From: Promethearchaeota archaeon
GTDB lineage: Archaea > Asgardarchaeota > Lokiarchaeia > Sigyniarchaeales > SOKP01
Direction of reading: 5' to 3'
NCBI GenBank assembly: GCA_048938005.1
Contig: JBHLMQ010000010.1
Coordinates: forward strand, 32,001-96,000
DNA: 64,000 bases
In this document: positions 3,762 through 60,845 of the stretch, piece by piece
Layout: each line of letters opens with the position of its first letter
Position numbering within the stretch: position 1 is the first letter of the stretch
Notes under the pieces: model-generated
The model's input: the letters and a program-made list of their open reading frames with translations, nothing else
Told to the model about the DNA's origin: nothing
The model's database searches: none
Translations under genes and position numbers: made by a program

Positions 3762-5669
3762 TTAATTTACTATTTTATTATTAGCATCTTCCACTTTCTT
3801 TATAGAAATCTCTGCAAGACTTTTATACTCAGGATCATAAAGATGACATGCTACAAAATATTCTGGAGCAACCTCCTTTTGCTTTGGAACTTTTGAATAA
3901 CAAGGCTCGAAACAATATTGACATCTAGGATGAAATCTGCAGCCTGAAGGGGGATAAATTAAATTTGGTACCCTTCCAGGTATAATTTCAAGCCTATCTT
4001 GGTTTTTCCCTATGACAGGAACAGAAGTTATAAGCCCTCTTGTGTATGGATGATAGGGGTGAATAAATAATTTCTTTATATCTCCATATTCAACAATAGA
4101 ACCACTGTACATCACAGCAACACGTTCACACATTTTGGAGATAATACCTAGATCATGAGTAATATATAATATTGTTGTATTGTATTTCTTACGAAGTTCT
4201 TTCATAAGTTTAAGAATTTGGTTTTGTATCGTCACATCTAACGCAGTAGTAGGTTCGTCAGCAATTAATAATTTAGGTCTACATGCGAGAGCCATAGCAA
4301 TCTGAACTCTTTGTCGCATACCACCACTTAATTCATGAGGGTATCGATCTATAATAATTTCAGGAAAGGGTATATTTAAATCTCTTAAAAGGGCTATACT
4401 CCATTCTCGAGCAACACTATATAAACTTTTATCGGGAAATTTGGAAGCTTCAACAAGTAATTCATTTTCCATATGCAATAGATATACTTCAGAGATTTGA
4501 GCCCCTATTTTAAAAACTGGGTTTAGAGAATTGAGTGGATCTTGAAAAATCATAGTAAGGTCTTTCCCACGATATTTTAACATTTCTGATTCAGTTTTTA
4601 ATAACAGATTTTCTCCTCCAAAAATAACTTTCCCTTTCTCTATCTTTCCTGGAGGTCGAATTACCTGAAGAATAGACAATGCGGTTACAGTTTTCCCACA
4701 GCCAGTTTCGCCTACAAGACCAAGAACTTCTCCTTCATATATTTTAAAAGAGACACCTTCTACAGCACGAACAATACCCTCTTCTGTATGAAAATACGTA
4801 GTGAGATCTTCCACATTAAGAACAACATGATTGTGGTCTAATGTAAAGTCTTTTACAGGTTGCTCTTCAAATAATTCTAATGCGGTTTGGAATTTTAATT
4901 TACTTTTTTCCATTTGCTTCGGCATAAATTTCTTTTTCAAGGATATGTAAAATACGAAACCATAAATGCCACTAACAACACCAATTAATATACGAATGTC
5001 TTGATTAAATGTTATTACTCCAAATAGTCTATTCAAATACAATTCAAAGATTATTAATTGTATTGACCAAATTCCAAATGAGATAAGACCACCAGAAAAC
5101 ATAGAATATTTAAAAGGTTTTTTTGGAATGCGCTTCTCAATTGGGAGGAGTTTATTAATTAAAATAGTGATGCTCATATCAATCCCAACAGTTAAACCCG
5201 CCCATAAAAATCCGAGGTAAAAGGTTTCAATTTTAAATGATCCTAATTCTTGAATATCTTCAATTCCTAGGAGAGGAATTGAAATAAAAATTATCGAAAT
5301 TATCCAATTTACTCCAATAAATATTTTGAATATTCTAATAAATGGACTACTAATAAGTTCCTCTCTTAAAGCGCCAAATCTTTCATATTTATACACAAAT
5401 TCTTTATACAAAAAATAAAAGATTGTCGTCATTATTGCAAATGATAAAGCATCAGTATTGAAAATTAAAAACGCATTATTAAAAGCCCATAGAGTTTCAA
5501 AAAGAGATCTAATAAGAAAGATAATACCTAATACTATGATGCTAATTACGGCTGAGCACTTTTTATGTATTTTTTTTGAGAGTTGTTTATCTTCAGGAAT
5601 TTGATTATTGATTAGATTTGAAATTAAGTATAAAATGAATGCTGCAATAATAGATTCCATTAAAGCCAT
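3762..5669 (-). CDS. oppD: Oligopeptide ABC ATPase (OppD/DppD-like) fused to an N-terminal multi-TM domain
   Basis: [33 protein letters not shown]; first ~245 aa hydrophobic. Confidence 0.88.
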
Positions 5670-5730
5670 TCCATAATTTAATCCATACTTAGTTTGATAT
5701 AATGAATTTAAAACTTTTTATCCCTCTTTT

Positions 5731-6729
5731 TTATAATTTTAGTCGTGGATCTAATGCGTCTCGCAATCCATCTCCAACTAGTATATATCCTATGGCTGCA
5801 ATTCCAATAAATAATCCAGGCCAAAAAGCCGCATTGATATTGGTTATTGAACCTTGTGCCCAAAAAATGTCAATTCCCCAACTAGCAACAGTTGGGTCTG
5901 AAAATCCTATAAAAGCTAGACCTGCTAGGCCTATTATTGCAATCGCAGCACCACCAAAAAAAGCTACTAACATAGGAGATATTGCGTTCGGTACAATATG
6001 TTTAAACATTACCTTAAATTTTAACGCACCACCCACTTTTGCGGCTTTAACATACTCTAGTTGCTTTACTTGTAAAACAAGTGATCGCATGAACCTGATA
6101 TTATATGGTATAAAAAGGATTCCATAAATTACAAGAGTGGTTAATAAATCTTGACTTATCATGGGAGCGAGTATAACGACAAGTATCAATGTGGGAAAGG
6201 CGTACATTAAATCTACAAAACGCATCATTATATAATCAATAGCTCCACCAAAATATGCAGATATCGTTCCTAAAATAAGACCTCCTCCAATAGAAATTGT
6301 TACAGGGATTAATGATGTTAATATTGTAGTTCTAGCTCCCCAAAGAATTCTTGCTAAAACATCATATCCATTTTCTGTTGTCCCCAAGGGATGTTCTGCC
6401 GATGGAGGAGCAAACTCAATTGGGTTAGGAGGAACATATGGTATTCTTAACTCTTGTAGTGGATAATTAGTTAACCAAGGAGTATATACCGCTAACACAA
6501 ATATAAATAAAATCATTAAAATACCAAATATTGTAAGAGGTTTAAGAAGGTGTCGAAATAATCTTCTTTTAGACTTTATTTTTTCTATATGATATTCTTG
6601 AGCAGAGAATTCAGGATCTCGCCAACCAGGAATTAAATAAAACTTTAAGAATCGAAAAAATTTCTTTTTTCTTAGTGATTCAGATTGCTCGTGATCTGTT
6701 GGACGTTCTTCTATTGCTTGTTCTGTCAT
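5731..6729 (-). CDS. oppC: Oligopeptide ABC permease OppC/DppC
   Basis: PPSAEHPLGT..GYDVLARILWGAR, EAA-like loop YVKAAKVGGA, GDGLRDALDPR. Confidence 0.93.
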   Translation of the reverse strand: MTEQAIEERPTDHEQSESLRKKKFFRFLKFYLIPGWRDPEFSAQEYHIEKIKSKRRLFRHLLKPLTIFGILMILFIFVLAVYTPWLTNYPLQELRIPYVPPNPIEFAPPSAEHPLGTTENGYDVLARILWGARTTILTSLIPVTISIGGGLILGTISAYFGGAIDYIMMRFVDLMYAFPTLILVVILAPMISQDLLTTLVIYGILFIPYNIRFMRSLVLQVKQLEYVKAAKVGGALKFKVMFKHIVPNAISPMLVAFFGGAAIAIIGLAGLAFIGFSDPTVASWGIDIFWAQGSITNINAAFWPGLFIGIAAIGYILVGDGLRDALDPRLKL

Positions 6730-17666: not shown

Positions 17667-17963
17667 ATGAGTGATGAAGGAGAAGAAAAAGAAAATTTCA
17701 TAGAAAAACTGAATAAATCTTTTACTGACTTCTTTGGAAATATTTTCGGTGAAAGTGGAAAAGATTTTTTTGAAGAAACTTCCGAAAAAATCAAAGATTT
17801 CTCTTCTGAGGCTATAAAGAAAATAATGGAATTTAGCGATGATGCTCTTGAAAAACTTAATTTAAATGAAAATGAACAAGTAATAAAAGCTCGTGACAGC
17901 ATAGAAGATATGTTAAAACAAGCAGGTCTCTTGAAAGAAGACGAAGAAGAAGAGGAATTTTAA
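17667..17963 (+). CDS. Small acidic helical hypothetical protein
   Basis: 98 aa ORF with ATG and a Glu-rich tail; family not recognised. Confidence 0.65.
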   Translation: MSDEGEEKENFIEKLNKSFTDFFGNIFGESGKDFFEETSEKIKDFSSEAIKKIMEFSDDALEKLNLNENEQVIKARDSIEDMLKQAGLLKEDEEEEEF

Positions 17964-18046
17964 TTAGAAATTTAACATTTAGAATTCAAATTTTATTCTA
18001 TACTCTATTTATTTTAATTTTAAGAATTTATTCTTAGAAAAGGAAG

Positions 18047-18289
18047 TTATAGGACATCCGCATTTTTTAAAAAAGATTTAATTTCTTCTTGAGTTGCATT
18101 GAAAAGTTCTGATAAAACCATTAAAGATGTTTGTTCATCCATTCCGGCGCCCGTATAATCTTGATATAATTGAATCCACGTTTCTTTCTGGATATATTTA
18201 TCTAGATGTTCTTTTTGAATATGTTGCCAATAAGGATGTTGCAACTCAACACCGCAGTATGGGCAAAAACGAGATTCTTCTTCACTCAT
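18047..18289 (-). CDS. Small C2H2-type zinc-finger protein
   Basis: CPYC..x..HIQKEH followed by a helical domain. Confidence 0.7.
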   Translation of the reverse strand: MSEEESRFCPYCGVELQHPYWQHIQKEHLDKYIQKETWIQLYQDYTGAGMDEQTSLMVLSELFNATQEEIKSFLKNADVL

Positions 18290-18421
18290 ATAATTATTCC
18301 CTTACCTTTTTTATCACTTAATTTTTTTTCTGAATAATTTTAATAAACCAATATTAGTATAAAAAATTTTTAATTTCAAAAAGTTAAAAAATGAGTATTT
18401 AGAGATTTTTTTTAGAATATT

Positions 18422-18949
18422 TTATGCCCATTTTTTTTTCAATTCGGAAGCTGTCAGTTTTCTTATTTGATCTATAGCAAAAATTACATATTTATAGCAT
18501 TGTCTTTCCCAAACCTTATTACTAAGATACTCATTCACTGAATTTAAATCATTAAAATCTGTACCGCATAATTCTTGACATGATACAGACCCGAATTCTT
18601 TTTCAAAATAATGAGTAAAAATTGCTGCTTTTTGATAGGTTTTCAAATGGTCCTTAGGTTTAAGTCTTTTATGACCACCTAATATCACCCCTATTGCTGC
18701 ACACCCTCCACATACAGCACCACACGGCCCTTTCCAATTTTTTATTGATTTAAATCCTCCAAATCCTCCAGCAAGAGGAATTGCAAGATTGTTGAAGTAA
18801 AAACTATTTAAATCCGAAATTCCAAGTATATCTATAATATTTGTAAGCGTAAGAGCAGCACAATTTCTTCCTCCTTCTAACTTTGGTAATGTTTCTTCAA
18901 GTTTTTTAATTTTCTCTTCAAACTTGGAATCCAAATCTTTTTTTGCCAT
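18422..18949 (-). CDS. C-GCAxxG-C-C family putative redox protein
   Basis: NCA, GFGG, CGAVCG, FGSVSCQEL, terminal Cys; probable start MAKK at 18949. Confidence 0.85.
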   Translation of the reverse strand: MAKKDLDSKFEEKIKKLEETLPKLEGGRNCAALTLTNIIDILGISDLNSFYFNNLAIPLAGGFGGFKSIKNWKGPCGAVCGGCAAIGVILGGHKRLKPKDHLKTYQKAAIFTHYFEKEFGSVSCQELCGTDFNDLNSVNEYLSNKVWERQCYKYVIFAIDQIRKLTASELKKKWA

Positions 18950-19206
18950 TTTTATATTCAACTTTTTACTAATCTTGATTGAATAAAAAATGATATTAAA
19001 TAAAAATTTAGAGATCAACTATTTTTTTGAGCAAGAGATCTTTACCAATTCAATTTTTTTTGCAATAAGGGGATTTTAATCCTACTTCTCTTACTTATTT
19101 TTAGTGTAAATTACACTTTGTTTAAAATTAAATATGAAAACCTTTTTTATTTTCTTAATAGAATTTTCTTACATAATAAAAATTTAAATTCAATTCTGAC
19201 CTTAAA

Positions 19207-19653
19207 TTGAAAGAACTTTACGAGATTGGTTTTGTATTTCGTGGATTTGTCCTTGTGAACCATATCTTCAAACAATTACCAGTTCAAAAAGAACAAGGAA
19301 TAAATAAGGATCTTAGAGGTGCATTTATTTCTGCTATTAACACATTTGCCGATACGGCCTTCAATAAAAGTTCTTTAGAATATTTAGAGTCAGGAAATAT
19401 TCTATTTATCTTTAAAATATCTGAAATTCAATCAGAAGATAATCGTGATAAAGAACCAATAATTCTATATGGATTAGTTGATAAATCAAAAAAAAAATCC
19501 GATAAACTTGTTAGAAAATTTTTTGAAAAGGTTACCCCCATATTAGAATTGTTTGTTCAAAGATTCGATCAGGCAAATTTTACAGAATTAAATCAATTTG
19601 AACCTTTTAAGGATGTAATGCGGGAGTTTTTTATAAAAAAAATTCAAGAATAA
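19207..19653 (+). CDS. Stand-alone longin-domain protein
   Basis: beta-beta (EIGFVFRGFVLV), helix DLRGAFISAINTF, three strands, helix ending LELFVQRF, then QFEPFK: longin topology (sigma-adaptin/TRAPP-like). Confidence 0.65.
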   Translation: MKELYEIGFVFRGFVLVNHIFKQLPVQKEQGINKDLRGAFISAINTFADTAFNKSSLEYLESGNILFIFKISEIQSEDNRDKEPIILYGLVDKSKKKSDKLVRKFFEKVTPILELFVQRFDQANFTELNQFEPFKDVMREFFIKKIQE

Positions 19654-21324
19654 TTATTCAACTAAACTCCAACCCTTTGGTTTTGCACGAGAATATTGGA
19701 TTTTACCTTGTTCCTTTAATGAATTGATTTCTTTTTCAATCTCACTATTAGAAAAACCTTTTTCTTTGATATGATTAATAAATTGATCTTTAGTTGGGAC
19801 TATTTTCTGTTCCTTTAAATATTCAATTATTACATCAGTTAATGAGCCACCAGCGCTAACTTTTTCTTTTGAAACAATCTTTTTAGGCTTCTTCTCAAGA
19901 GCGGCTACCAATTTCTCTTTTACAGGTTCGACTGGTTTTTCAATAACTAATGGTTGTACTTTAGGTTTTGGTTGTTCCTCTACAATAACTTCGGCTTTAA
20001 CTTCTTTAGGCATTTCTTTCTGTATTTCTTCTTCTGGTAAGCTCCAAACGGGGTAACTAATCTTTTCATAAATAACTGATTTTTGCGTCTTTAAAAGTGT
20101 GAATTCTTCTAAGATTTCATCTTCAGAATACCCTAAGTCACTCAAATCTTTCATTAAATCTTTTAGATGCCCCTTTTCTTGTAAAATATTGAAAATGTGT
20201 TCTCTAATGTTTGTTGGAACATCTTTCACTTTCGCTAATTCTTTAATTAAATCCTCTTTTTTGGTAATCTTTGTTTCAGGGATTTTCATTTTTTGAGGAA
20301 TGTCAAGGGTTTGTTTTTGACCCCATTCAAAGTCAGTGATGTTATGGATTTTACGGTCATAGCCACCAAATACAATGTGTTTTATATTTTGCTCTTTCCC
20401 GAATATATAACACACATTTTTAATTGAAGTAGATACTTTAGTCTTCCATTTTAATTCAAATTCTTTAGAATCAAGGGATGGATTGTGAAAGACTTTTAAA
20501 GAACCATCAGCACAGCCAGCAACAATTTCATTAGCATTATCTCCATCTATATCTTCAATTAGCAACGAAAGTGGTCGTCCTTCTTCAGTATTAATCTCTT
20601 TTATAAGATCCCCTTCACTATTAAGGATCTTAATCGTTGAATCATCAGTACTCAGTAGAATTTCATGAAATCCATTATTAATTACATCTCCAATTTTTAT
20701 ATCATTAATCTGAAATTTAAAATCTCTCTGCCAAATAATATCTGGCATTTTATCCTCAAATTGAACTAATTGAACTACACCATTTTTAGTACCAACTAAT
20801 AACCCATAAATTGGTTCATCATTATCTGGTAATTGTAAGAAACCTAATGTGCAGGCTGTGACCCAAGAATCGTAATAAAGAACATAACTTGGCTTATTAG
20901 CCTTAATATCATCGAAAATTTTTAGAGTTTTATCATCACTCCCAAAAATAAGTTCAATATTTCCATCTCGAGTAAAATCTCCAGCAATACAACAATTTAT
21001 TCTTTTAGAGGATTTATATCGCATTAATCCTACAAGTTTTTTCTTTTCAACATTTAATTTTAAAACCATGAAATTACCATCACCAGCTCCAACTAGTACT
21101 TCATCGCAGCCATCTCCATCAATATCAATTGGATAACTACAACGACACCATCCATCAAAAGATCTATCATCAATAATGTCCTTCTTTTCATCCATTAGAT
21201 AAAGAGTCTTATCGTGTCCACCAAAAACTAGAAAAATCTTATCTTTACATTTCAATATGGAACACGTTAGCACCGCATCTGGACATTCAAACATCCAATT
21301 TAGTTGATAACGTTTTCTTATCAT
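19654..21324 (-). CDS. FG-GAP/VCBS-type beta-propeller with C-terminal winged-helix-like domain(s)
   Basis: Repeats DIDGDGCDEVLVG, GDFTRDGNIELIFGSDD, GDVINNGFHEILLSTDD, DIDGDNANEIVAG; no signal peptide; C-terminus EINSLKEQGKIQYSRAKPKGW. Confidence 0.75.
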   Translation of the reverse strand: MIRKRYQLNWMFECPDAVLTCSILKCKDKIFLVFGGHDKTLYLMDEKKDIIDDRSFDGWCRCSYPIDIDGDGCDEVLVGAGDGNFMVLKLNVEKKKLVGLMRYKSSKRINCCIAGDFTRDGNIELIFGSDDKTLKIFDDIKANKPSYVLYYDSWVTACTLGFLQLPDNDEPIYGLLVGTKNGVVQLVQFEDKMPDIIWQRDFKFQINDIKIGDVINNGFHEILLSTDDSTIKILNSEGDLIKEINTEEGRPLSLLIEDIDGDNANEIVAGCADGSLKVFHNPSLDSKEFELKWKTKVSTSIKNVCYIFGKEQNIKHIVFGGYDRKIHNITDFEWGQKQTLDIPQKMKIPETKITKKEDLIKELAKVKDVPTNIREHIFNILQEKGHLKDLMKDLSDLGYSEDEILEEFTLLKTQKSVIYEKISYPVWSLPEEEIQKEMPKEVKAEVIVEEQPKPKVQPLVIEKPVEPVKEKLVAALEKKPKKIVSKEKVSAGGSLTDVIIEYLKEQKIVPTKDQFINHIKEKGFSNSEIEKEINSLKEQGKIQYSRAKPKGWSLVE

Positions 21325-21478
21325 GGTTTTCGTAAAAATGTTATTTAAAGTATAAAAATTAATGAAAATAATTAAGTAAAATTTCTTTGTTTATTCTATT
21401 AATACTTATCACTGCATTTATTAAACTGTTACTGTAAATATAAAAAATAAAAAAAAAATAAAAAATACTTTTTAGATT

Positions 21479-23647
21479 TTAAAGCGCTAATTGGGCATCA
21501 GATGGACTGTATTTTCCTGTACCCTTTATTTCATATGTAATTTCTAATTTATCCCCAATTTCTAGAACATCTACATCCCATTTTAGTGTGTCTTGACCTA
21601 CTTCATCGGTTATTTCTGGAGTCATAGAATAATCACCATATTCGAATTTATCAGGTACCTTATCGAGAAGAACTAAATTGTGTAATTTAGATTCGCCAAT
21701 GTTTTCAAGCGTTAATATAATTCTGTAATTTCCGAGATCTCCAATAGGTACAACTTCCTTTCCAATTCTGAATTTTCTTCTGATATGCATTGCCTCAATT
21801 ACGGGAACTTCTGGTTTGAACTCTAACTCTTGACTTACGGGATATGTGTTTGCGAGATAGATAATTTCAGATTCGAAGGTGGATTCACGTGCTGGATTTG
21901 TACAATGAATAGGATATTCAAACTCTAAAGTTGAATCTGGTTTAAACATACCAGTACTACTGTCTTTTAAATCTGTAAGATCGATTTTAAATGCATTTTC
22001 CTTGAAACTTACAGCAGCAGCTGATACTTCAACTTCTTCTCCATCCCACACTAGTTTTATTTCCTCTGCCTTTGGGGGTTGATATTCATCCGAGAAGTAT
22101 TGTTGTACAACAGTCACCTCATTAAGTGGTGCTGAACCATTATTAACCATTTTAAGTGAAGCAATAACATCTTTAGTTCGATAAGTTGGAACTTCTGTTA
22201 AGTTATATGACATTACTCCAGTAATACTACCAATCTCTAATATGACGTCTGAAAGAGAAGCTGACCCTTTTACGATTGTTTGAAAATCAGGCATCACTCT
22301 AAATTCTAATTTCTTCCTAAAAGTAGGATATTCTTCGCTTTCATACTCCCATTTCGTCGAGTGCCATTGAGCACCACTTGGTAATAATGGTACATCATTT
22401 GGATCAATATCTACAAATTTTTTTGATTTATCTTCTGGAGAATAAACATCTGCATTGAAAAGTTGAATGATAAACTCTGAAGAATTATCAAATACTAATT
22501 TACAATCAAAGATCCCAGGTTCTTCATCCCGTTCAACAGTATCAACATAGAACTTATTTCTTGTATAAGCATCAAATTTGTCTATATCTAAACCTTCGGC
22601 AAATGAAGATGCTCCTTGATATGTGACTTCTACAGTCCCTGTTCTTCTTTTAGTAATATCTGTGACCATAATATTACATGTAAATTTCATCATAACTGTA
22701 TATTCAGGGGCCAATTTATCAATTGTCCAAATGATTTGGTTTCCTGAAATCTCAGCTCTTCCTTCGGTTGTGTCTCGGATTACAGGATTAGTAAAATCAT
22801 CAGGGATATTTTTTACAACTTTTATATTAGAAACTGGTTTATCAAACATGCTTCTAAGAGCTATTGCGAAATAAACAACGTTGTCCCTATCAATTGAGAT
22901 TCCAAACGATTCTAAGCCGGTTTCAACAAGATCTCCACCATCTCCCCAAGTTTCTCCTTCGTCTTCTTCTTCCTCTTCTTCTTCCTCCTCTTCCTCCTCT
23001 TCTACTTCTGGTTCTTTTGGAGGGGCTTTTGGTTTGGCAGAGACCTCACTTTTTGTATCCTTTAATTTTAATAACTCTTTTTCAATATCATTTATATTTA
23101 AAACATCATCAGCATTTGGTAGAGTGCAAATGAATTCTTTCACAAGTAATAAATTTTTTATATCTTTCGTTATTTTAAAGTCTCTTGAGTCAACGTTATC
23201 AGGTTCTTCAGTCCCTAATTCTTGTATCGAAATATCTTTTGATTTTAAATTTGTACTTCCTATGTTTTTAAGTGAAACATCAATATCCCATAATCTATCA
23301 ACGGAACTTGGATTTTCAATATTTAATTTTCCAGTATGAGTAAATGAATCAACAACAGCATCATGATCTTGTACTACATCCACTTCTTCAATTATTTTTA
23401 CTAAAGCTAGTAATCCCTCTCTATTCCTATCTTTCAGAACGATGCTACCCTCTAGTTTTCCCGTATCCTCATCATAAGTCTCAATAACCGGTGTTGCGGT
23501 ATCTCTATCGAGCAATTCAACTCTCCCTGTATCCATATCCTTTCTTTTTAATGCATCAGCTATAATTTCTTCTTCAGCTTCTGCTTTATCCCAGCCCATT
23601 CGCGCTGTTGGTCTTGTTTCTCTCTTTTTCTTATCTTTTCGAGCCAT
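21479..23647 (-). CDS. Cytoplasmic beta-sandwich repeat protein (mu-homology/DUF11-like) with poly-Glu tract
   Basis: No signal peptide or TM; repeated N.g...l.n..v...P and i.W.i..L..g Ig-like motifs; Glu run at ~aa 217-230. Confidence 0.6.
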   Translation of the reverse strand: MARKDKKKRETRPTARMGWDKAEAEEEIIADALKRKDMDTGRVELLDRDTATPVIETYDEDTGKLEGSIVLKDRNREGLLALVKIIEEVDVVQDHDAVVDSFTHTGKLNIENPSSVDRLWDIDVSLKNIGSTNLKSKDISIQELGTEEPDNVDSRDFKITKDIKNLLLVKEFICTLPNADDVLNINDIEKELLKLKDTKSEVSAKPKAPPKEPEVEEEEEEEEEEEEEDEGETWGDGGDLVETGLESFGISIDRDNVVYFAIALRSMFDKPVSNIKVVKNIPDDFTNPVIRDTTEGRAEISGNQIIWTIDKLAPEYTVMMKFTCNIMVTDITKRRTGTVEVTYQGASSFAEGLDIDKFDAYTRNKFYVDTVERDEEPGIFDCKLVFDNSSEFIIQLFNADVYSPEDKSKKFVDIDPNDVPLLPSGAQWHSTKWEYESEEYPTFRKKLEFRVMPDFQTIVKGSASLSDVILEIGSITGVMSYNLTEVPTYRTKDVIASLKMVNNGSAPLNEVTVVQQYFSDEYQPPKAEEIKLVWDGEEVEVSAAAVSFKENAFKIDLTDLKDSSTGMFKPDSTLEFEYPIHCTNPARESTFESEIIYLANTYPVSQELEFKPEVPVIEAMHIRRKFRIGKEVVPIGDLGNYRIILTLENIGESKLHNLVLLDKVPDKFEYGDYSMTPEITDEVGQDTLKWDVDVLEIGDKLEITYEIKGTGKYSPSDAQLAL

Positions 23648-23802: not shown

Positions 23803-23964
23803 TTATAAGCATTTATTATCAAACTCTCTTGGAATAAAGGAAAAAAATTTAGGATCCTTAAATTCATGACCACACATTGGACAAACTATCTTAGCTTTTT
23901 CTGGTTTAATGTCAGAATATCTGAAACTAAAACCGCAAGCAGGACAAATTATTATTTCACTCAT
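23803..23964 (-). CDS. Small zinc-ribbon protein (53 aa, not in ORF track)
   Basis: MSEIIICPACGFSFRYSDIKPEKAKIVCPMCGHEFKDP...; two CxxCG knuckles. Confidence 0.75.
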   Translation of the reverse strand: MSEIIICPACGFSFRYSDIKPEKAKIVCPMCGHEFKDPKFFSFIPREFDNKCL

Positions 23965-30104: not shown

Positions 30105-32051
30105 ATGAAAAAAAAATATGTTACTACATTATCCTATTTAAAAGTAGTAGTTAGACCCAGATTTCCAAAATTCGTTAGAATTTTTAATTCATATATAATG
30201 AAACATGGGGCTGTGCCTATTGTTAAGATTTTAGCTAAATTTTTGGGTCTTAATTTTCCTAAAAATGGAGTTAAAAAATATCCTGAATATATGGTAAATT
30301 TAGAGGATGGTACTAAATTAGCGACCGATGTATATGTTCCTAAAAAGATTTTCGAGAATCATGGTAAATGTGCTACTATATTAGTAAGATTACCATATTG
30401 GAAAGACAATTTAAGTATTATAGGTTATACATACGCCGCCTATGGATTTGTAGCAGTAATTCAAGATATTAGAGGAACAGGTCATTCAAGTGGCTTCAAT
30501 TATTATCTATTTACAGAGAGAGAAGATGGGTTAGAAACTTTAGAATGGATATCTAAACAATATTGGTATAACGGAAAAATAGGAATGGCAGGAGCAAGCT
30601 ATTTTGGCATCACTCAACTCACACTTTCATGGGATAATGAATATTTGACTTGTATTTCCCCGGCTATCACATCAACATTGAATTTATGGAAAAATAATGG
30701 AGGACTTGAGATTCATGCCTTAACTACTTCTATTTATAGGATAATGCTGAATATCGCCTCACATCAAGAGGCACCCAATGTTGATACATTAACAGAATTA
30801 ATGCAAGAACGATATTTGAATCCAAATTATGCTATATTTAATGATCCTATTAAAAAGAAAAGTGGAATTAGGTTATCTCAGTTAAAAGGTAAATCTATTA
30901 AAGAAGTTCAAGATCTTTTGGTAGCTTTTTATAATATTAAAAATTTTGATCCCTCTAAGCGTAGTCTCAAAATTTATTTTGAATTTTTAAATGATTTCTT
31001 AATTACAAGAGGTTTGGATAAGGACTCATACAAAATGTCTGGATTCTTGGAAATGGATGCGGAAAAAATTTCTCAACCTGTTTTTATGCTAGCTGGTTGG
31101 CAGGATATGTTTTTAGAGAAACAATTAGCAGATTTTATTGAAATCAAGGAGAAGGCAGTCGGAGATCCAAGAAAATATTCGAAATTGTTAATAGGTTCAT
31201 GGGCACATGGAGCGAGTGGACACCCTGAAAGCAAGATTCGAAATGCTGGAATGCTACGATTTTTCAAAGAATTCCTAAGTCTCGATTGGAACCGTTATTG
31301 GTTAATGGATGAAAAAAATGCATTTCCCGATATAAACAAACCTTCGATTAAATATTGGGTTATGGGAAGAAATATTTGGAGATATGCAGAGGATTGGCCA
31401 CCAAGAAATATTGACTATAAAAAATTGTACATTCATTCTGGTGGAAATGCAAATAGTATTAAAGGAGATGGCATACTAAATACTGAACAACCGACCAATG
31501 AAGCAGAAGATAAGTATATTTTTGATCCTATGAATCCAATTATAACTAAAGGTGGTAGAAATTTAGGTATTTTAAAGGGGGCTCAAGATCAAAAAGATGC
31601 TGAAAAAAGAACAGATGTGCTGATATACACTACTAAATCATTAGAGAAAGGAATAGAGATAACTGGTCCAGTGAAGATGATCCTATATGCCTCATCATCA
31701 GCAATAGATACAGATTTTATGGTCAAATTAGTTGATGTATTTCCTAGGGGGAAAGCGATTAATATTCTTGATGCTGGAATTCGTGCCCGGTTCAGAAATG
31801 ATGATGCTAATCCCTCGCTTATCGAGCCGGGAAAAGTGTATAAATATGAGATAGAATTAGGAAATACTTCAAATTACTTTAGGAAAGGACATCAAATACG
31901 AATTGAAATAACATCAAGTAATTTTCCAAGATTCGATATCAACTCAAACTTAGGAGGAGAAGGGAAACCAGGAAACTATTTTATTGCAGAACAAAAAGTT
32001 TATCACACACAGGAATTCCCTAGTCATCTTATAATTCCTGTTCTAAAATAA
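30105..32051 (+). CDS. CocE/NonD family serine hydrolase (S15-like)
   Basis: DGTKLATDVY, RLPY, QDIRGTGHSSG, GASYFG nucleophile, GWQD, GSWAH, SSNFPRFDIN. Confidence 0.92.
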   Translation: MKKKYVTTLSYLKVVVRPRFPKFVRIFNSYIMKHGAVPIVKILAKFLGLNFPKNGVKKYPEYMVNLEDGTKLATDVYVPKKIFENHGKCATILVRLPYWKDNLSIIGYTYAAYGFVAVIQDIRGTGHSSGFNYYLFTEREDGLETLEWISKQYWYNGKIGMAGASYFGITQLTLSWDNEYLTCISPAITSTLNLWKNNGGLEIHALTTSIYRIMLNIASHQEAPNVDTLTELMQERYLNPNYAIFNDPIKKKSGIRLSQLKGKSIKEVQDLLVAFYNIKNFDPSKRSLKIYFEFLNDFLITRGLDKDSYKMSGFLEMDAEKISQPVFMLAGWQDMFLEKQLADFIEIKEKAVGDPRKYSKLLIGSWAHGASGHPESKIRNAGMLRFFKEFLSLDWNRYWLMDEKNAFPDINKPSIKYWVMGRNIWRYAEDWPPRNIDYKKLYIHSGGNANSIKGDGILNTEQPTNEAEDKYIFDPMNPIITKGGRNLGILKGAQDQKDAEKRTDVLIYTTKSLEKGIEITGPVKMILYASSSAIDTDFMVKLVDVFPRGKAINILDAGIRARFRNDDANPSLIEPGKVYKYEIELGNTSNYFRKGHQIRIEITSSNFPRFDINSNLGGEGKPGNYFIAEQKVYHTQEFPSHLIIPVLK

Positions 32052-38438: not shown

Positions 38439-39998
38439 CTAATATTTATGATCAATAGCAGAGAGCAATACTTTCAATTGATCGAATATATCTGGACGAT
38501 AATCAAGCCCAATTCTGAAAAATAAGAGATCTACTAATTTATTATCGATATGTTCATCAACATTTAATTTTTCAATTATGTCTGACCAATCAATGGTCTC
38601 AGAGGCTCTTACTCCGATTAAAATCACTCCATTTTCTTTTGTATTTTCTACAATTTTAATAATTATCTCTCTCCAGGCAGGAGTAATGTGTTCTAAATTT
38701 CGAGCGTCAAAAATACAAAATATCCCGTCAGAACTGGAAATATCATCAACAGCCGAATATTGATGTTGTTTTAATATCAAACCATTTGTAAATTGATAAA
38801 CTTTTTCATCATCATAATCTCTTATCAATGATTTCTCTCCTAATTTTGTGATATTAGTTATGATTTGCAATCCAGGATTCCAATGTAAACTCTCAGTAAT
38901 AAGAGATAAAGTGAAAACAATTTTTTTTGCCAGAATAGAATTGATTATATCTAATAGAATTTCACCGCGTCTTTCTTCTTCAATTTCTTTGCTTTTCATT
39001 ACATAATGATATGAAATTAAGTTAAACGCATCCTCAACATTGCTTCCTGTTAACGCACTAGTTTCAATATAAGACAATTTAATTTTTTCTCTTTGAGATA
39101 AATTATTTGCTAATTTTGCCCCTTCCTGATAAAAGACTTTTCTATTTTCAACTAAATCAGATTTATTTCCAACTATTACGATTGGTATATCTTCTTCCGG
39201 CGTAAAAAGCTTTAATTCCTCAAACCAACTTAATACATTATCAAAAGTTTTACGATCAGTTAAATCAAAAACTAGAAATGCCGCTTGAGCGCCTGAATAA
39301 TAGACTTTTCGGAATCTTTTAAAGAATTTTTGCGCTCCCAAGTCATACAAGGTAACTCCAATCTCATTTCCAAAAAATTCAAATGTGTGAGATAAAACAT
39401 TCAATCCAATAGTTGCTCTATAATCTTCTGTATATTTATTTTCGACAAATCTTCTTATTATCGATGTTTTACCTACTTCATGATCACCTATAATAACGAA
39501 TTTAAACCGATATTCACCATGAGTACCAATATCCATCTGATATAATTGATTTTTTAACCTTTGTACGTTTCCTGCTTCATATTCAAAATTAGGGACCGAA
39601 ATTTGAATCATGTCATCTTCATCAGCAGTAAGAATTTGAGCTGTCTTCTCTGCTAAAAAAAGACCATATGGCGAAAGATTTTCAATTGAAGCCATACTTT
39701 CTAAGACCAAGCTCAGAATTCTTTCTTCATCAACAGAGATGAATAAAAGACGATGATCCTCAGTATCAAAATTAGCAGTACCAAATTTCTGAAAATCAAA
39801 TTCACTACGCATCCGTTCTAATACAGGATTTATTATTGATGTTAAAACAGAAACTAATTCTATGTCAATATCTTTCCTTTTTTCACCAGCAATAATTAAT
39901 CCTTCAGAATCAGAAATTATTACAGCTTCTACTTCCTTATTTATCTCTAAAAATTTATCAAATAATTCTCTGAAGAGTTTATTTTTCTGAATTGGCAA
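38439..39998 (-). CDS. Roadblock/LC7 - Rab-like small GTPase - degenerate GTPase fusion
   Basis: N-terminal VEAVIISDSEGLII roadblock; GDHEVGKTS, YRATIG, YDLGAQ, NKSD, ETSALTG; C-terminal DGIFCIFDAR..VILIG. Confidence 0.88.
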   Translation of the reverse strand: MPIQKNKLFRELFDKFLEINKEVEAVIISDSEGLIIAGEKRKDIDIELVSVLTSIINPVLERMRSEFDFQKFGTANFDTEDHRLLFISVDEERILSLVLESMASIENLSPYGLFLAEKTAQILTADEDDMIQISVPNFEYEAGNVQRLKNQLYQMDIGTHGEYRFKFVIIGDHEVGKTSIIRRFVENKYTEDYRATIGLNVLSHTFEFFGNEIGVTLYDLGAQKFFKRFRKVYYSGAQAAFLVFDLTDRKTFDNVLSWFEELKLFTPEEDIPIVIVGNKSDLVENRKVFYQEGAKLANNLSQREKIKLSYIETSALTGSNVEDAFNLISYHYVMKSKEIEEERRGEILLDIINSILAKKIVFTLSLITESLHWNPGLQIITNITKLGEKSLIRDYDDEKVYQFTNGLILKQHQYSAVDDISSSDGIFCIFDARNLEHITPAWREIIIKIVENTKENGVILIGVRASETIDWSDIIEKLNVDEHIDNKLVDLLFFRIGLDYRPDIFDQLKVLLSAIDHKY

Positions 39999-40110: not shown

Positions 40111-41697
40111 TTAAAGGTACTTAATTGTATTTAACATTACTTTAAGTTGATCATAAATTTCTAATCGATATTCAAGTCCTAATTTAAAGAACAATAGGGA
40201 CACCATTTTTTGCTCTAACAATTCATTTACATTGAATTCTTCCATGATTGTCGACCAGTCGCTCTTATCTGAAACTCGTATGCCAATTAACACGACTTTG
40301 TTCTCTTCAATATCATTGATGATCTTAACGACAACATCTTTCCACATTGATTCAATATGATCTTTATCTCTAGCATCAAAAATGCAAAATACTCCATCAG
40401 AGCCACTAACTTCAAAATTATGGTAAAGATAATTTTTTAATGTTGTACCATTTGAAAATTTATATAATTTTTCTTCTCTATCATCTTTAATCTTTTCGCA
40501 CTCATTTAAGTCATTAATCTCCGACAAGATTTGCAATCCAGGGCTCCAAAATTCATTTTCAGAAATGATTGTTAATGTTAATAAAGAATCCAAACTCTCT
40601 CCAATTACTTTTCTTTCTTTTAAAATAGAATTGAGTTCCTCCATTAAATCTTGTTTGACCCGCTCCTCTTCTTCCTCTTTACTCTTTGCTATGTAATGAT
40701 ATGCTATCAAAGTAAACGCGTCTTCAACGTTTTCACCGGTTAATGCGCTGGTCTCTAAAAAAGATATCTTTATATTTGGTTTATTGGATAATTCATTAAC
40801 TAATTGTACGCCATCATCATATTCTACAGTTCTTTGATCTTTTAAATCAGTCTTATTTCCAATTATAATAATGGGGATTTCTCTTCCTCCAATAAAATCT
40901 TCTAATTCTTTATACCATTCTTTAACACTTTCAAAAGATTTTCTATTGGTAAGATCAAAAACTATAAATGCTGCCTGTGTGCCTAAATAGTAGGTTTGGC
41001 GAAATCGTTTGAAGTACATTTGAGCACCCACGTCCCAGAGCGAATAGATAATATTATTTCCAAAGAATTCAATGGAATGCGATAAAATATTCAATCCAAT
41101 TGTCGCTCGATAATCATGTGAAAATTTATTTTCTACAAATCGTCTGACAAGACTCGTTTTTCCTACCTCGTGATCTCCAATTATAACAAATTTAAACCGG
41201 TACATTCCTCCTTGATCTAATCTCATTTGATAAATCTGATTTTTTACTCTTTCTATATAAGAAGTTTCATCTGTTTCATATTCGAAATTAGGAATTGTTA
41301 ACTGTATATTGTCACCTTCTTCCAAATTAAGAATTTGGACAGATTTTTCGGCAAGAAGATAGGCATATGGAGAGGCTTTGTCTACAGACGCTAAATTGTT
41401 TAATACAACACTAAGAGTTCTGTTTTCATCTAAAGAAATAAACAATAGTCTATAAAATTCTGTATCGAAACTTGCAGTACCAAATTTTTTAAACATAAAT
41501 TCATCACGAATTCTTTCGACAATCGGATGAATAATTGAGGTTAAAACGCTAACTATTTCCATATCCACATCACTCCTTTTTTCACCAGCGATAACTAAAC
41601 CTTGTTGATCGCTTACGATTACTGCTTCTACTTCTTTATTTATTTCCAAGAATTGATTGAATAATTCCGTAAAGAGTTGTTTTCTATTTATTGACAT
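40111..41697 (-). CDS. Roadblock/LC7 - Rab-like small GTPase - degenerate GTPase fusion (paralog)
   Basis: VEAVIVSDQQGLVI; GDHEVGKTS, YRATIG, WDVGAQ, NKTD, ETSALTG; DGVFCIFDAR. Confidence 0.88.
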   Translation of the reverse strand: MSINRKQLFTELFNQFLEINKEVEAVIVSDQQGLVIAGEKRSDVDMEIVSVLTSIIHPIVERIRDEFMFKKFGTASFDTEFYRLLFISLDENRTLSVVLNNLASVDKASPYAYLLAEKSVQILNLEEGDNIQLTIPNFEYETDETSYIERVKNQIYQMRLDQGGMYRFKFVIIGDHEVGKTSLVRRFVENKFSHDYRATIGLNILSHSIEFFGNNIIYSLWDVGAQMYFKRFRQTYYLGTQAAFIVFDLTNRKSFESVKEWYKELEDFIGGREIPIIIIGNKTDLKDQRTVEYDDGVQLVNELSNKPNIKISFLETSALTGENVEDAFTLIAYHYIAKSKEEEEERVKQDLMEELNSILKERKVIGESLDSLLTLTIISENEFWSPGLQILSEINDLNECEKIKDDREEKLYKFSNGTTLKNYLYHNFEVSGSDGVFCIFDARDKDHIESMWKDVVVKIINDIEENKVVLIGIRVSDKSDWSTIMEEFNVNELLEQKMVSLLFFKLGLEYRLEIYDQLKVMLNTIKYL

Positions 41698-41852: not shown

Positions 41853-42470
41853 ATGGAAATTGTCAAAAAAACAAGATATAACATAATGCCCTCTTGTATA
41901 GTTTGCCATTTGAATATAGATAAAAGCACTGATTCAATTTATAAATGTGAAAATGGACATCCTGTTCATAAATATTGTCTAGCAGAATGGTTAATGCATT
42001 CACAAAACTGTCCATTATGCAATAACCCATATTCTCAAAGTTTAATTGATCAGTTTCAAGATTATATCGAGAAAAAGGAAAAAGAGAAACAATCAGCCTT
42101 AGAAAAGGAATTACAAAAAGAATCAATAAAGAAGATGGAGCAGGTCGCAGAAAAAATAGTTTTTCTCAAGCTTGTTGAATCTATTGAAGAATTGATTGAC
42201 AAAAAAAAATATAATGAAGCAATTGATAAGCTCTTAGCTGAATACAATGAGAGTGCTATAGATGACAAAAATTTAAATGTTCTCTTTTTACTTGGAAAAG
42301 CTAACTATCTAAAAGGGCGATATGATTTAACTATTAACTTTTTATTTAAATTGGTTAAAATAAGATATGATTACCCTGATGGATTTTTATATTTAGGGAA
42401 ATCATATGAAAAACTTGGACTTCATGATAAAGCCAAGTGGGCTTTTGAAAGGGTTTCAGAAAGCAAATAA
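41853..42470 (+). CDS. RING-H2 finger + coiled coil + TPR protein (putative E3 ubiquitin ligase)
   Basis: CIVC...C.NGHPVHKYCLAEW...CPLC; C-terminal TPR helices LLGKANYLKG, YLGKSYEKLG; start may be ATG 41886. Confidence 0.82.
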   Translation: MEIVKKTRYNIMPSCIVCHLNIDKSTDSIYKCENGHPVHKYCLAEWLMHSQNCPLCNNPYSQSLIDQFQDYIEKKEKEKQSALEKELQKESIKKMEQVAEKIVFLKLVESIEELIDKKKYNEAIDKLLAEYNESAIDDKNLNVLFLLGKANYLKGRYDLTINFLFKLVKIRYDYPDGFLYLGKSYEKLGLHDKAKWAFERVSESK

Positions 42471-58502: not shown

Positions 58503-60845
58503 ATGAAAGCATCGATTTTAAAAAAATTAAATCTAATAATTGAAGAAGCTAACGCTTTTAAAGATAAAAATAATTTTCAAAAAGCAATTAGAAAGTTTCA
58601 AGAAGCATTAGATTTTATTAATTTAAAGGTTAAAGAAGAAGAAGATAAAAATATTGAAATTGAAAACATAAAAAATGCAATTAATCAAACTTATTCAGTT
58701 CAGGCTGATAACGTAATTCAAGGAGCGATACATTTAACAGCCCAAAAAAAATTTAAGAAAGCTACAGAGCAATTTATGGAAGCACTTAAGTTAGTTGAAA
58801 ATATTGATGAGCCTGGTCTCAAACTTGCTGAAAGTGATGAAATTAATAAATTAATTAGCGAGAATGAAATAGAACAATTAATAACAAATGCCATTGAGTT
58901 GAAGTCTAAAAATCAATTAGATGAAGCTGTAGAAATGTTTAAAACAGGATTACGTATCGCAAAGGAAATTTATGAGTCAGAATTTAGAAATGAAGCTTTA
59001 TTAAGAATTAAAAACGAAATTGATGAAATATATGATTGCCAAATTGATGAAATGGTAGAAAAAGGTAAAAATTATAAAAAAAATGGACAGGATGATGAAG
59101 CTATTAAAACCTTTGAAAAAGCATTGCAATCTATTGAAAAATTCTTTGATCCCGAAGCTAAGAAAACACAAATTAATATTATTAAAAACTTAAACAATGA
59201 AATCTATTCTAATCAAATCAAACCTTTAGTTGAGAAAGGAAAAGATTTAATCAAACAAAATTTAACAGATCAAGCGATTTCTGAGCTCAATAATGCAGTA
59301 ACTTTAATAAATAAGATGTTTGATTCTGAACTCAAAGATCTTGAGATAAGCCTTATTGCTGAAACGTTAAACCCAATTTATATTGAAAGAATTAAACCAT
59401 TAGTAGTTGAGGGAAAACAGATAACTACCCTAGAAAAATTTGAAGAGTCAATAAATTCAATTAATAAAGCAGTTGATTTCTTCCAACAAGCTTTGGATAT
59501 TGCCAATAAAATGGTAAGATCAGAAAGAAAAGAAATACAAATCAAAGAAATTAGTGAATTAATTAATAATTCTTGTATTTCAGGAATAAATGTGATAAAA
59601 GACAAATCAATTCAGAATATAGTCCAAAAAAAATATGATGATGCTGTGAGCGATTTGTATATTGCTTTAAGTTTAGCTAAAAGAATGGTATATCCAGAAG
59701 AAGAAAATCCAGAATTAGAAAATCTCAAAAATCTAGTTAACAAGGTTTATTCTGCTGAAGTTACTGAAGTTATTAATAAGGGAAATAAATTGGTCGAAGA
59801 AAAAGATTATGATAAAGCAATAGAAACTTACAATGAAGCATTAACGATGACAAATAAAATGTACTTAACTGATGAAATGGAAAAAGAAGTTAACATGATT
59901 AAAGGTTTAATTTATGAAACGGAAGTGAAACAATTAGTAGTAAAAGGAGAATTACTTGAACAGCAAAAACTAAAAGAAAAAGAAATTGAAAAACTCAAAA
60001 AAAGATTAGATTATGCTCAATCAATAGATGATCCAGAACGACGAGCTGCTGAAATGGCAAAAATCAAGAAATTAATTGATGATGTTCATTCAGATGAGAT
60101 AAAGTTATTAATTGAACAAGGAAACCAACTTGCTGATTTAAAGAAGTATGATGATGCGTTCAAATTTTATGAAAGAGCTTTAAAAGTTAATAATATGATG
60201 GAAGAACCAGATGTAAAAAATAAAGATTTAATAAAGAGCTCCTATAAGAAAGAACTTATTAATCGGGCAAAACTAGAGATTGAAAATAAAAATTATGATA
60301 ATGCCATTGAAAACTGTAGAAGGGCTTTAGATTTAGATGAAATATTTGTTGATGGATATTACCATATTGGGTTAGCATATAATTACAAAAAGAAATATGA
60401 CGCAGCAATAGAAAACTTTCAAAAAGCTGTTAATTTTGACGAAAAACATATTAAATCATGGAATTCTATGGGCTTAGCATATGAAGCAAAAGAGGATTAT
60501 GATAATGCTCTTCGATATTTAAATAAAGCAATAGAGATTGACCCTGAATTTCTCGATAGTTGGTATAATATTGGAAATTTATATAAACTAAGAAAAGAAT
60601 ACGATAAAGCGATTGAGAGCTATAAAAAAGCAACTGAAGTAAACCCTGAATTCGCAGTAGCCTGGTTCTTTATGGGAAATGCATATTTTGATAAAAAAGA
60701 TTATAATAACGCAGTTCAAAGTATTGAAAAAGCTATTAAAATTGATCCTAATCTAGGCCAAGATGTAAATCCTCTTATAAAAGATTTCAAAAAATCGATC
60801 GAAAAACTCTATGAAACACTTTCAATGCATTTTATTAATAGATAA
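58503..60845 (+). CDS. Large TPR/alpha-solenoid protein
   Basis: Canonical C-terminal TPRs (WNSMGLAY, WYNIGNLY, WFFMGNAY); N-terminal ~500 aa of longer helical repeats. Confidence 0.88.
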   Translation: MKASILKKLNLIIEEANAFKDKNNFQKAIRKFQEALDFINLKVKEEEDKNIEIENIKNAINQTYSVQADNVIQGAIHLTAQKKFKKATEQFMEALKLVENIDEPGLKLAESDEINKLISENEIEQLITNAIELKSKNQLDEAVEMFKTGLRIAKEIYESEFRNEALLRIKNEIDEIYDCQIDEMVEKGKNYKKNGQDDEAIKTFEKALQSIEKFFDPEAKKTQINIIKNLNNEIYSNQIKPLVEKGKDLIKQNLTDQAISELNNAVTLINKMFDSELKDLEISLIAETLNPIYIERIKPLVVEGKQITTLEKFEESINSINKAVDFFQQALDIANKMVRSERKEIQIKEISELINNSCISGINVIKDKSIQNIVQKKYDDAVSDLYIALSLAKRMVYPEEENPELENLKNLVNKVYSAEVTEVINKGNKLVEEKDYDKAIETYNEALTMTNKMYLTDEMEKEVNMIKGLIYETEVKQLVVKGELLEQQKLKEKEIEKLKKRLDYAQSIDDPERRAAEMAKIKKLIDDVHSDEIKLLIEQGNQLADLKKYDDAFKFYERALKVNNMMEEPDVKNKDLIKSSYKKELINRAKLEIENKNYDNAIENCRRALDLDEIFVDGYYHIGLAYNYKKKYDAAIENFQKAVNFDEKHIKSWNSMGLAYEAKEDYDNALRYLNKAIEIDPEFLDSWYNIGNLYKLRKEYDKAIESYKKATEVNPEFAVAWFFMGNAYFDKKDYNNAVQSIEKAIKIDPNLGQDVNPLIKDFKKSIEKLYETLSMHFINR

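Follow-up and report, generated by a model that had tools for sequence, protein, structure and literature searches.

A mu-homology protein and an ITFG2/BBS-type beta-propeller as a candidate functional pair in a Lokiarchaeial archaeon, beside a probably independent longin gene

We analysed a 64,000-nucleotide (nt) stretch of the genome of a Promethearchaeota archaeon (positions 32,001 to 96,000 of contig JBHLMQ010000010.1, assembly GCA_048938005.1; hereafter 'the window'), and in it three adjacent genes: P148 (19207-19653, plus strand), which encodes a longin protein of 148 amino acids (aa), PROP556 (19654-21324, minus strand), which encodes a 556-aa FG-GAP beta-propeller protein, and P722 (21479-23647, minus strand), which encodes a 722-aa protein with a mu-homology domain (MHD). 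We propose, with moderate confidence, that P722 and PROP556, probably together with the small zinc-ribbon gene zn53, form a functional unit in which the two proteins would make up a cytosolic scaffold, and that P148 is independent of it. The origin of the eukaryotic vesicle-coat and adaptor machinery is open, and the Asgard evidence that bears on the AP and COPI complexes has so far consisted of scattered domain matches. The locus supplies fold-level evidence, in the form of a widespread Asgard family with a complete MHD, and a testable two-gene hypothesis: an MHD protein plus an ITFG2/BBS-type propeller as a candidate archaeal forerunner of eukaryotic trafficking machinery.

A sequence-only reading of this DNA had placed three signal-less genes side by side, and re-reading the sequence confirmed the layout: the TAA stop codon of P148 (19651-19653, plus strand; the gene has a TTG start) abuts the TTA at 19654-19656 that is the TAA stop of the convergent PROP556 gene, with a gap of 0 at 19653/19654, and PROP556 and P722 lie on the same strand, 154 nt apart. 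No hydrophobic N-terminus or transmembrane-like segment was seen in any of the three proteins by a hydropathy check, which is not a signal-peptide predictor (maximal Kyte-Doolittle means over a 19-residue window of 1.06 for P148, 1.27 for PROP556 and 1.11 for P722); this agrees with the earlier description, and the proteins are probably soluble, with a predicted cytoplasmic location. All three genes are conserved and coding, not chance open reading frames (ORFs), as judged by 656 homologues of P148 at E<=0.01 (664 candidates), 345 homologues of P722 at E<=0.001 (8000 candidates scored) and detection of the propeller in 39 of 41 related genomes. Their nearest homologues are in records of Promethearchaeota, Promethearchaeia or 'Candidatus Lokiarchaeota'; the window's own genome is 95% complete and comprises 3.72 Mb in 101 contigs.

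Residues 76-467 of P722 (22247-23422, minus strand) are, as modelled, a complete mu-homology fold. The AlphaFold2 (AF2) model has a mean predicted local distance difference test score (pLDDT) of 76.8, with the MHD region mostly at 80-95 and disordered segments at residues 1-19, 205-245, 623-635 and 714-722. In the VIA-align comparison residues 76-467 superpose on residues ~169-435 of mu2 at Z 19.2-18.0 and a root-mean-square deviation (rmsd) of ~3.5 Å over ~225 residues (224 of 245 in the best row), and MHD chains – the mu subunits of AP-1, AP-2, AP-3 and AP-4, delta-COP and SGIP1 – take up 49 of the 50 best rows. The remaining row is the immunoglobulin (Ig) domain of the pilin SpaD, which matches P722 residues 475-619 at Z 14.8 and an rmsd of 2.5 Å over 135 residues. 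Foldseek gives target-normalised TM-scores of 0.58-0.76 against chains comprising the mu MHD only. The sequences of relatives add independent signals. PF00928 matches nine of ten family members scanned (E 2e-12 to 8e-4), five of them above the gathering score of 31.6 bits (33.4-47.4) and four below it (19.3-25.4), every match spanning only profile positions 122-241 of 259, and a precomputed PF00928 match is present in 28 of the best 120 P722 homologues. When a profile of 11 P722 sequences (alignment A1: seven from the window's family and four from a sister family) was run against all PDB sequences, all 17 rows at E<=10 were AP-2 mu, with E ~0.07. It is because of the near-full coverage of mu2 169-435 at Z 19.2, combined with these PF00928 and PDB-profile signals, that we identify the domain as an MHD, as had been suggested from the sequence. 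No longin domain precedes it in the chain: in the AF2 model the 75 residues before the MHD are a helix and a hairpin.

Around and within the MHD, P722 carries several further elements. Its first 75 residues (23423-23647) comprise a polybasic tip (MARKDKKKRETRP) and, after it, a conserved segment of helix and beta-hairpin; G18, E23, E26, K34, T57, D59, G63, E66 and G67 are invariant there across the 11 sequences of the two families. A disordered poly-acidic (poly-Glu) loop within the MHD (residues 205-245, 22913-23035; pLDDT <50) is present in all seven window's-family sequences of alignment A1 and in none of the four sister-family orthologues. After the MHD come a predicted Ig-like beta-sandwich at residues 475-619 (21791-22225), identified by VIA-align, and a putative C-terminal DUF11-type Ig-like domain at residues 640-710 (21518-21730), indicated by Pfam matches in orthologues and an all-beta model. 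DUF11 (PF01345) matches residues 635-709 in P722 orthologues and, at 32.4 bits, is the sole Pfam match of the window's protein above its gathering score; TIGR01451 weakly matches residues 635-676.

The P722 family is widespread: its profile retrieves 960 cluster representatives at E<=1e-3 and 219 at E<=1e-30, and matches 157 of 201 genomes sampled across the phylum (E<=1e-10). The window's genome has a second, distant MHD copy on another contig. Some giant multi-repeat proteins give 15-36 profile matches each over P722 positions 239-315 or 581-702; six of them (P0289, P0293, P0315, P0328, P0364 and P0374, 4000-6300 aa) have 24-36 matches each, at positions that correspond to the MHD subdomain recognised by Pfam or to the last Ig domain of P722. 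DUF11-type repeats may have a common origin with MHD subdomain B, which would hint at an origin of the MHD fold.

PROP556, by its profile matches, is an FG-GAP propeller of the ITFG2/BBS2/BBS7 type, and here too the initial call stands. The propeller occupies residues 1-345 (20290-21324, minus strand), where Pfam reports Beta-prop_BBS7 at 72.5 bits, the lambda-carrageenase propeller at 52.2, BBS2_Mid at 43.0, FG-GAP_3 at 36.7 and Itfg2 at 27.1, the cut-offs for these propeller families being ~27 bits. With a profile of 16 sequences (A3), the best solved relative among PDB sequences is ITFG2 of KICSTOR (E 9e-14), followed, among natural proteins of known complexes, by BBS7 (3e-6) and BBS2 (5e-6). 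In the ESM Atlas PROP556 has its own cluster, with the same set of Pfam families. The tail, residues 346-556, holds two copies of a ~68-aa module: copy 1 at residues 364-431 (20032-20235), which matches a hidden Markov model of the C-terminal module with an independent E-value of 9e-6, and copy 2 at residues 487-556 (19657-19866), which ends in the motif YSRxxPxGWS. Homologues carry 0, 1, 2, 3 or 4 copies. The module is probably winged-helix-like, as its sub-threshold Pfam matches (E 0.002-0.08) are mostly to winged-helix families: HTH_24, MCM_WH_arc, SAMD1_WH, z-alpha and Cullin_Nedd8. Against PDB sequences it gave no meaningful match (E>=0.05) apart from designed pentatricopeptide repeats, which yielded 0 qualifying stretches and which we treated as compositional; an ESM Atlas feature search with the tail returned no usable match, and neither Pfam nor PDB sequences gave any signal of coiled-coil, GAE, platform or helical domains in residues 346-556.

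The case for a linked pair begins with gene order. Among 80 loci with P722 orthologues, recovered with the P722 profile at 50-92% identity (they overlap the other counts given here and are related, not independent, samples), the propeller is the next gene in 78, is co-oriented in 77 and follows after a gap of 132-227 nt in 76; at the two loci lacking it the contigs end 63 and 1220 bases past P722. The trio of P148, PROP and P722 is adjacent in all ten loci from the window's genus. At 11 P148 loci from seven other genera of the family, the trio is found in five and one locus starts at the propeller; at four, from the genera g12 and g13, P148 adjoins a glycerate-kinase-like gene with only 150-700 nt in between, and the block of zn53, P722 and PROP is missing from between the two; the eleventh is the G062 locus described below. 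In the sister family, which includes complete single-contig genomes and where the propeller is 25-28% and the MHD protein 34-38% identical to the window's own, the two genes are neighbouring but convergent at five loci (L022, L023, L024, L026, with one gene between, and L030), and lie 5.5 kb apart at L028; of the other four loci, three are contigs 4.9-11 kb long and one is a 14-kb stretch without an MHD gene. In six genera from two families the propeller and MHD genes are adjacent or close together, and the genes around them differ: when six loci from six genera were compared (65 ORFs of >=100 aa), only the propeller and MHD groups were common to all six, three other groups being common to two or three loci.

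The two genes are also absent together. In five genomes of g12 and g13 (89-100% complete) the MHD search finds no more than a distant paralogue, scoring 155-183 bits versus 1218 for the window's copy, and in the same five genomes the propeller matches are partial and generic (<=95 bits), with no full-length orthologue. In a third genus, g16, the search for propeller orthologues at E<=1e-20 came up empty for three of four genomes (G064, G080 and G091), the fourth, G062, keeping its propeller; the MHD-profile search covered G064 and G080 (not G091) and gave no match in the former and a paralogue-level match in the latter. That P722 and PROP are jointly missing in g12, g13 and most of g16 suggests a functional pair, and it is because their proximity survives changes of surroundings and orientation, and because they are absent together, that we regard P722 and PROP556 as linked.

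Several observations weigh against this reading. The whole family keeps the same gene order over ~12 kb, which takes in glycerate-kinase-like, dihydrolipoamide-dehydrogenase-like and phosphoesterase genes, and since these metabolic neighbours are equally conserved, adjacency within the family proves little alone; related genomes, moreover, are not independent samples. The pair converges in the sister family and so is not an operon there. In the window P722 and PROP556 may be transcribed separately: in the spacer between them (21325-21478, minus strand) oligo-T runs lie right behind the P722 stop and a TTTATA/TTTAAATA stretch precedes the PROP556 ATG, which by eye resemble a terminator and a TATA-box, in an AT-rich genome (~31% GC, like the window itself) where such strings are common. 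At 20 loci around other MHD-family genes (19 from other Asgard families plus the paralogue of the window's genome; flanks of ~5-6 kb, with three loci <5 kb) there was no propeller, tail-module or P148-like ORF in any, and the MHD-propeller pairing is, on this comparison, lineage-specific and does not extend to Asgard MHD proteins at large. The G062 locus (L053, on G062:C25) has an intact propeller gene (4482-6164), two tandem P148 copies and a 46-aa C-terminal remnant of P722 (4159-4296), upstream of which lies a 1249-aa ORF of unassigned kind; with no intact P722 at hand, either the propeller works alone or this copy is decaying. As to the MHD itself, the P722 model was built from 11 sequences and is the best of five AF2 models, the other four being poorer (pLDDT 54-65). 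The one scanned family member without PF00928 is the window's own protein, in which the Pfam scan does not find it even at E<=10. Finally, the MHD subdomain that Pfam recognises also resembles DUF11 repeats, and part of the sequence signal is generically Ig-like.

Such points lend some credit to the view that all three genes are independent neighbours, held together by inherited gene order and without a shared function. This view, which we consider doubtful yet worth keeping in mind, accommodates the family-wide conservation of metabolic genes along ~12 kb, the transcription signals that the genes appear to carry on their own and the propeller of G062 that persists without P722; it fits poorly with the proximity of propeller and MHD genes in the sister family, with these two being the only ORF groups shared by all six loci compared, and with their joint absence from g12, g13 and most of g16.

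P148 is, as modelled, a single-domain, genuine longin. Its AF2 model (pLDDT 81.9, predicted TM-score 0.77) has the DSSP element order β-β-α-β-β-β-α-α. This is the longin order, which extends over ~120-140 residues; roadblock domains begin with a helix. In a VIA-align comparison with 48,161 representative chains, which is independent of Foldseek, rows 1-30 (Z 11.8-8.7, ~3 Å rmsd, residues 1-148) are all chains that we take, in part by their entry titles, to contain longins: CPLANE, synbindin, VAMP7, the N-termini of AP-2, AP-3 and AP-1 mu, sedlin, AP sigma, SRX and Sec22, as well as Mon1-Ccz1, a Lokiarchaeal Roadblock-Longin protein, BLOC-3, Lst4 and GATOR1. Roadblock domains rank lower (Z 8.6-7.1) and cover residues 1 to ~120 only. 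Foldseek gave no match at E<=0.001, and the longin call, which upholds the initial one, rests on VIA-align. Sequence searches were silent: Pfam found no significant family in 17 P148 family members, with nothing below E 0.026; PF01217 (Clat_adaptor_s) had no match at E<=1 in P148 or the 17 members; and a P148-family profile run against PDB sequences gave chance-level rows only (E ~1 or more). Since the top longin rows are tied within ~1 Z unit and there is no Pfam match, P148 is not assignable to a longin subfamily. The window's genome has two P148 paralogues, at G000:C24:22679-23086 and G000:C31:90867-91262 (both minus strand; 33% and 27% identical), and up to nine P148-like matches per genome occur in one genus.

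The presence of a longin next to an MHD had led the sequence-only reading to propose one proto-adaptor or coat-like complex of all three proteins, in which P148 and P722 would be the longin and MHD halves of a split mu subunit. The idea has its attractions: AP mu and delta-COP are built of a longin and an MHD and the locus has both folds, the N-terminal longins of AP-2, AP-3 and AP-1 mu are among the top structural matches of P148 (Z 11.0-9.7), and P148 is present in 71 of the 80 P722 loci, always convergent and mostly within 44 nt of the propeller gene. We nevertheless consider it quite unlikely. The mu and sigma matches are tied, to ~1 Z unit, with SNARE, TRAPP, SRX and CPLANE longins, and PF01217 gives no signal. 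P148 is found in all 61 genomes of the family, including those from which P722 and PROP are gone, and no P148-like ORF lies near the pair in the sister-family loci; conversely, at four of the 80 loci P148 is absent despite 741-5598 bases of room after the propeller. Fused longin-MHD proteins were not found: none of the 150 best family representatives has a P148-like, propeller-like or tail-module match, 18 long P722-family forms show only DUF11 or one weak tetratricopeptide (TPR) match, and there are no longer P148 relatives among 444 candidates, the last being weak evidence. Nor did a search bring up convincing adaptin-like large subunits in the window's genome, where Adaptin_N matches are HEAT-like (a control search with Adaptin_N also gives matches in B. 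subtilis and methanogens) and PF01217 has one sub-threshold match, at 17.3 bits with a cut-off of 22.5, on another contig; near the locus we found no adaptin-like or sigma-like candidates. Synteny, in short, is conserved for the propeller-MHD pair in two families and for the longin in one only. Because P148 is linked in a single family, persists in genomes without the pair and was not found fused, it is probably an independent, family-level syntenic neighbour, a bystander and not the absent N-terminal half of a mu-type subunit. The split-adaptor model is replaced by a narrower and better-supported hypothesis, that of an MHD-Ig protein paired with an ITFG2/BBS-type propeller.

A different role for propeller and longin would be that of a platform of the KICSTOR/GATOR/Ragulator kind, scaffolding or regulating Rag-, Arf- or Ras-like GTPases, with the MHD-Ig protein as an accessory. 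ITFG2, the propeller's best solved sequence relative, is a KICSTOR subunit; for P148, Foldseek ranks the C-terminal domains of Lokiarchaeal Rag-like GTPases first and LAMTOR and KICSTOR-GATOR1 chains lower; GATOR1, Mon1-Ccz1 and FLCN-type longins of guanine-nucleotide exchange factors and GTPase-activating proteins are among the VIA-align matches of P148; and the genome is rich in small GTPases, with two 520-aa Ras/Roc proteins 15 kb away. Still, none of the loci examined links a GTPase gene to the pair, the Foldseek matches of P148 are weak (E 1e-3 to 3e-2), P148 is not tied to the pair and KICSTOR is not known to have an MHD subunit, all of which makes a GTPase platform very unlikely. Least of all do we expect non-classically exported cell-surface or adhesion proteins, for which DUF11 and FG-GAP would be typical: DUF11 is indeed the one above-gathering Pfam match of the window's P722, the family profile finds partial matches in giant multi-repeat proteins and a pilin domain best matches residues 475-619, but none of the three proteins has a signal-peptide-like or transmembrane segment, the P722 N-terminus is polybasic and strongly hydrophilic and a poly-Glu loop follows, and the nearest relatives of the propeller (ITFG2, BBS2, BBS7) and of residues 76-467 (AP mu) are cytosolic.

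How might the favoured pair of P722 and PROP556 work? The domain identities, gene order, conservation and joint losses described above are observations, and what follows on mechanism we infer from them. Eukaryotic MHDs, as known from AP mu, the muniscins and the stonins, recognise short linear motifs of cargo and accessory proteins and also bind acidic lipids, and the propellers of clathrin, COPI, the BBSome and KICSTOR are peptide-docking or assembly platforms. Most economically, P722 and PROP556 would assemble into a cytosolic two-protein scaffold, with the MHD and two Ig-like surfaces contributed by P722, and the propeller and two small winged-helix-like modules by PROP556. The MHD could, as in eukaryotes, present a surface to which short peptide motifs and possibly acidic membranes bind, and the propeller could add another surface for docking or oligomerisation, like the propellers of coats, the BBSome and KICSTOR. 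More speculatively, the polybasic tip of P722 might be a membrane-contact element and the poly-Glu loop an autoinhibitory one. P148 would act independently, e.g. as a small-GTPase or SNARE-like regulatory module. A bolder version, in which the MHD-Ig and propeller-winged-helix proteins, perhaps with the zinc-ribbon protein and a recruited longin, make up a Lokiarchaeal cytosolic coat- or adaptor-like complex that binds peptide motifs and membranes, is an extant prokaryotic relative of the combination of an MHD subunit with a beta-propeller subunit in COPI and TSET, and has an MHD derived from prokaryotic DUF11-type Ig repeats, strikes us as unlikely.

The candidate third member, zn53, is a 53-aa zinc-ribbon ORF (CPxCG ... 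CPxCG) at 23803-23964 on the minus strand, directly upstream of P722 and in the same orientation. By tblastn at E<=1e-3, a search of limited sensitivity for so short an ORF, it was found at the same position in 55 of the 80 P722-orthologue loci and was not detected in sister-family loci; it may belong to the P722-PROP556 unit in the window's family.

Other genes near the pair or its relatives are recorded here as observations in their own right. On the far side of P148, at 17667-19018, lie three small genes, encoding a 98-aa acidic protein, an 80-aa zinc-ribbon protein and a C_GCAxxG_C_C redox protein, which are kept with P148 family-wide, also in genera without the MHD-propeller pair. In one genus of the sister family, a ~100-aa ORF in the orientation of the MHD gene sits between the convergent propeller and MHD genes (L022, 9242-9538, minus strand, a copy that looks helical from its sequence; L024, 3632-3952, minus strand), a TFIIB-like gene adjoins the propeller gene in two sister-family genera (L026, 6579-7451; L028, 8394-9308), and a ~345-aa ORF is common to three sister-family loci. 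Around the pan-Asgard MHD subfamily no trafficking-type partner was found among 30 flanking ORFs at 13 loci; a gene of the metallo-beta-lactamase fold (Lactamase_B_3) adjoins the shorter (~600 aa) MHD gene at four of these (L166, L167, L168 and L177), and two further loci have helix-hairpin-helix protein neighbours. Elsewhere in the window, Asgard-typical proteins include two Ras/Roc-family GTPases of 520 aa, a RING finger, a Kelch propeller and an MIT-TPR protein. The GTPases are tandem paralogues of ~520 aa (38439-39998 and 40111-41697, minus strand) with a central Ras/Roc/Arf-type GTPase domain (residues ~166-330) flanked by N- and C-terminal regions of ~160-190 aa; they are presumably the 'roadblock-GTPases' of the sequence-only reading. 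A RING-H2 finger protein gene (41853-42470, plus strand) adjoins them, and a 780-aa protein encoded at 58503-60845 (plus strand) has an N-terminal MIT domain of the ESCRT-III-interacting type followed by many TPR repeats.

The components of the locus are already known kinds of Asgard eukaryotic signature proteins (ESPs): the MHD family, longins and a BBS7/ITFG2 cluster. Asgard homologues of all functional domains of AP and COPI have been described as 'sparsely distributed' and 'not fused to each other' (Eme et al. 2023, Nature 618:992), and in the covered parts of Table S3 of that study PF00928 occurs at least 44 times, entries of P722's family come from Jord-, Hel-, Hermod- and Lokiarchaeales, and 'longin' occurs at least 423 times, with hundreds of Asgard longin candidates. 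That isolated adaptor-like domains had been reported in Asgard archaea, as stated in the sequence-only reading, is correct, and the report concerns this same family, an orthologue being present in the part of Table S3 covered. FG-GAP, Itfg2 and BBS2_Mid are absent from the parts of the supplement covered; a catalogued Asgard-eukaryote cluster is labelled 'BBS7/ITFG2' in the part seen of a 2026 preprint (10.64898/2026.10.28.762692), which was the only hit, among partial records, for Asgard together with ITFG2 or BBS7. Titles and abstract openings retrieved for Asgard archaea and BBSome mention no Asgard BBSome homologue. A literature search that covered few subscription journals returned no paper on an Asgard 'mu homology domain', Adap_comp_sub, or MHD plus adaptor, and none linking MHD and propeller genes or describing an MHD-Ig architecture. 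The MHD-propeller pairing, its joint loss and the architecture at fold level seem to be new. The pairing of P722 with PROP556 turns an entry in an ESP list into an experiment: binding of membranes or peptide motifs by the pair would give a first functional grip on an adaptor-like module from beyond the eukaryotes, and should there be no such binding, 'Adap_comp_sub' in ESP lists would denote a fold only.

How, then, does the locus compare with known systems? The 'Adap_comp_sub' ESP candidates of Eme et al. (2023) are, in the parts covered, of the same protein family as P722: the Lokiarchaeales Bin_204 entry of Table S3 shares the N-terminal MGWD...TPVIETYDEDTG...LALVKIIEEV with P722, and its contig is that of our locus L134. 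The covered parts of that study differ from our analysis in offering a domain match only, with no structure comparison, architecture or neighbourhood. P148 resembles the longin proteins at large (AP sigma and mu N-termini, Sec22/VAMP7/Ykt6, TRAPP sedlin and synbindin, SRX, CPLANE and Mon1-Ccz1) in element order and in its full-length matches at Z 11.8-8.7, and differs from the named subfamilies in being assignable to none. PROP556 shares with ITFG2 of KICSTOR and BBS2 and BBS7 of the BBSome an FG-GAP-like blade signature and its best Pfam and PDB sequence matches, and these proteins are, like the predicted PROP556, cytosolic scaffold subunits. In BBS2 and BBS7 the propeller is followed by coiled-coil, GAE, platform and helical domains, whereas in PROP556 it is followed by the two putative winged-helix-like modules of ~68 aa. 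Further subunits of the BBSome or KICSTOR were not seen, though no search was aimed at them.

P722 is like the mu subunits of AP-1 to AP-4 and delta-COP in that its modelled residues 76-467 superpose on the whole mu2 MHD (169-435; Z 19.2, 3.5 Å), with the MHDs of mu4, mu1, mu3 and delta-COP matching at Z 17.6-15.7, and in that some of its orthologues reach the PF00928 gathering score. It differs from them in lacking an N-terminal longin in the chain, in having an acidic disordered loop within the MHD and two C-terminal Ig-like domains, and in that no adaptin-like large or sigma subunit is linked to its locus. The muniscins (FCHo, Syp1, SGIP1) and stonins share with P722 an MHD without a longin, as a stand-alone module that is not part of a tetramer, and the SGIP1 MHD matches P722 at Z 14.9-14.7. 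Muniscins have an N-terminal F-BAR or membrane-phosphoinositide-binding region; P722 is without one, and its candidate partner is instead the propeller PROP556.

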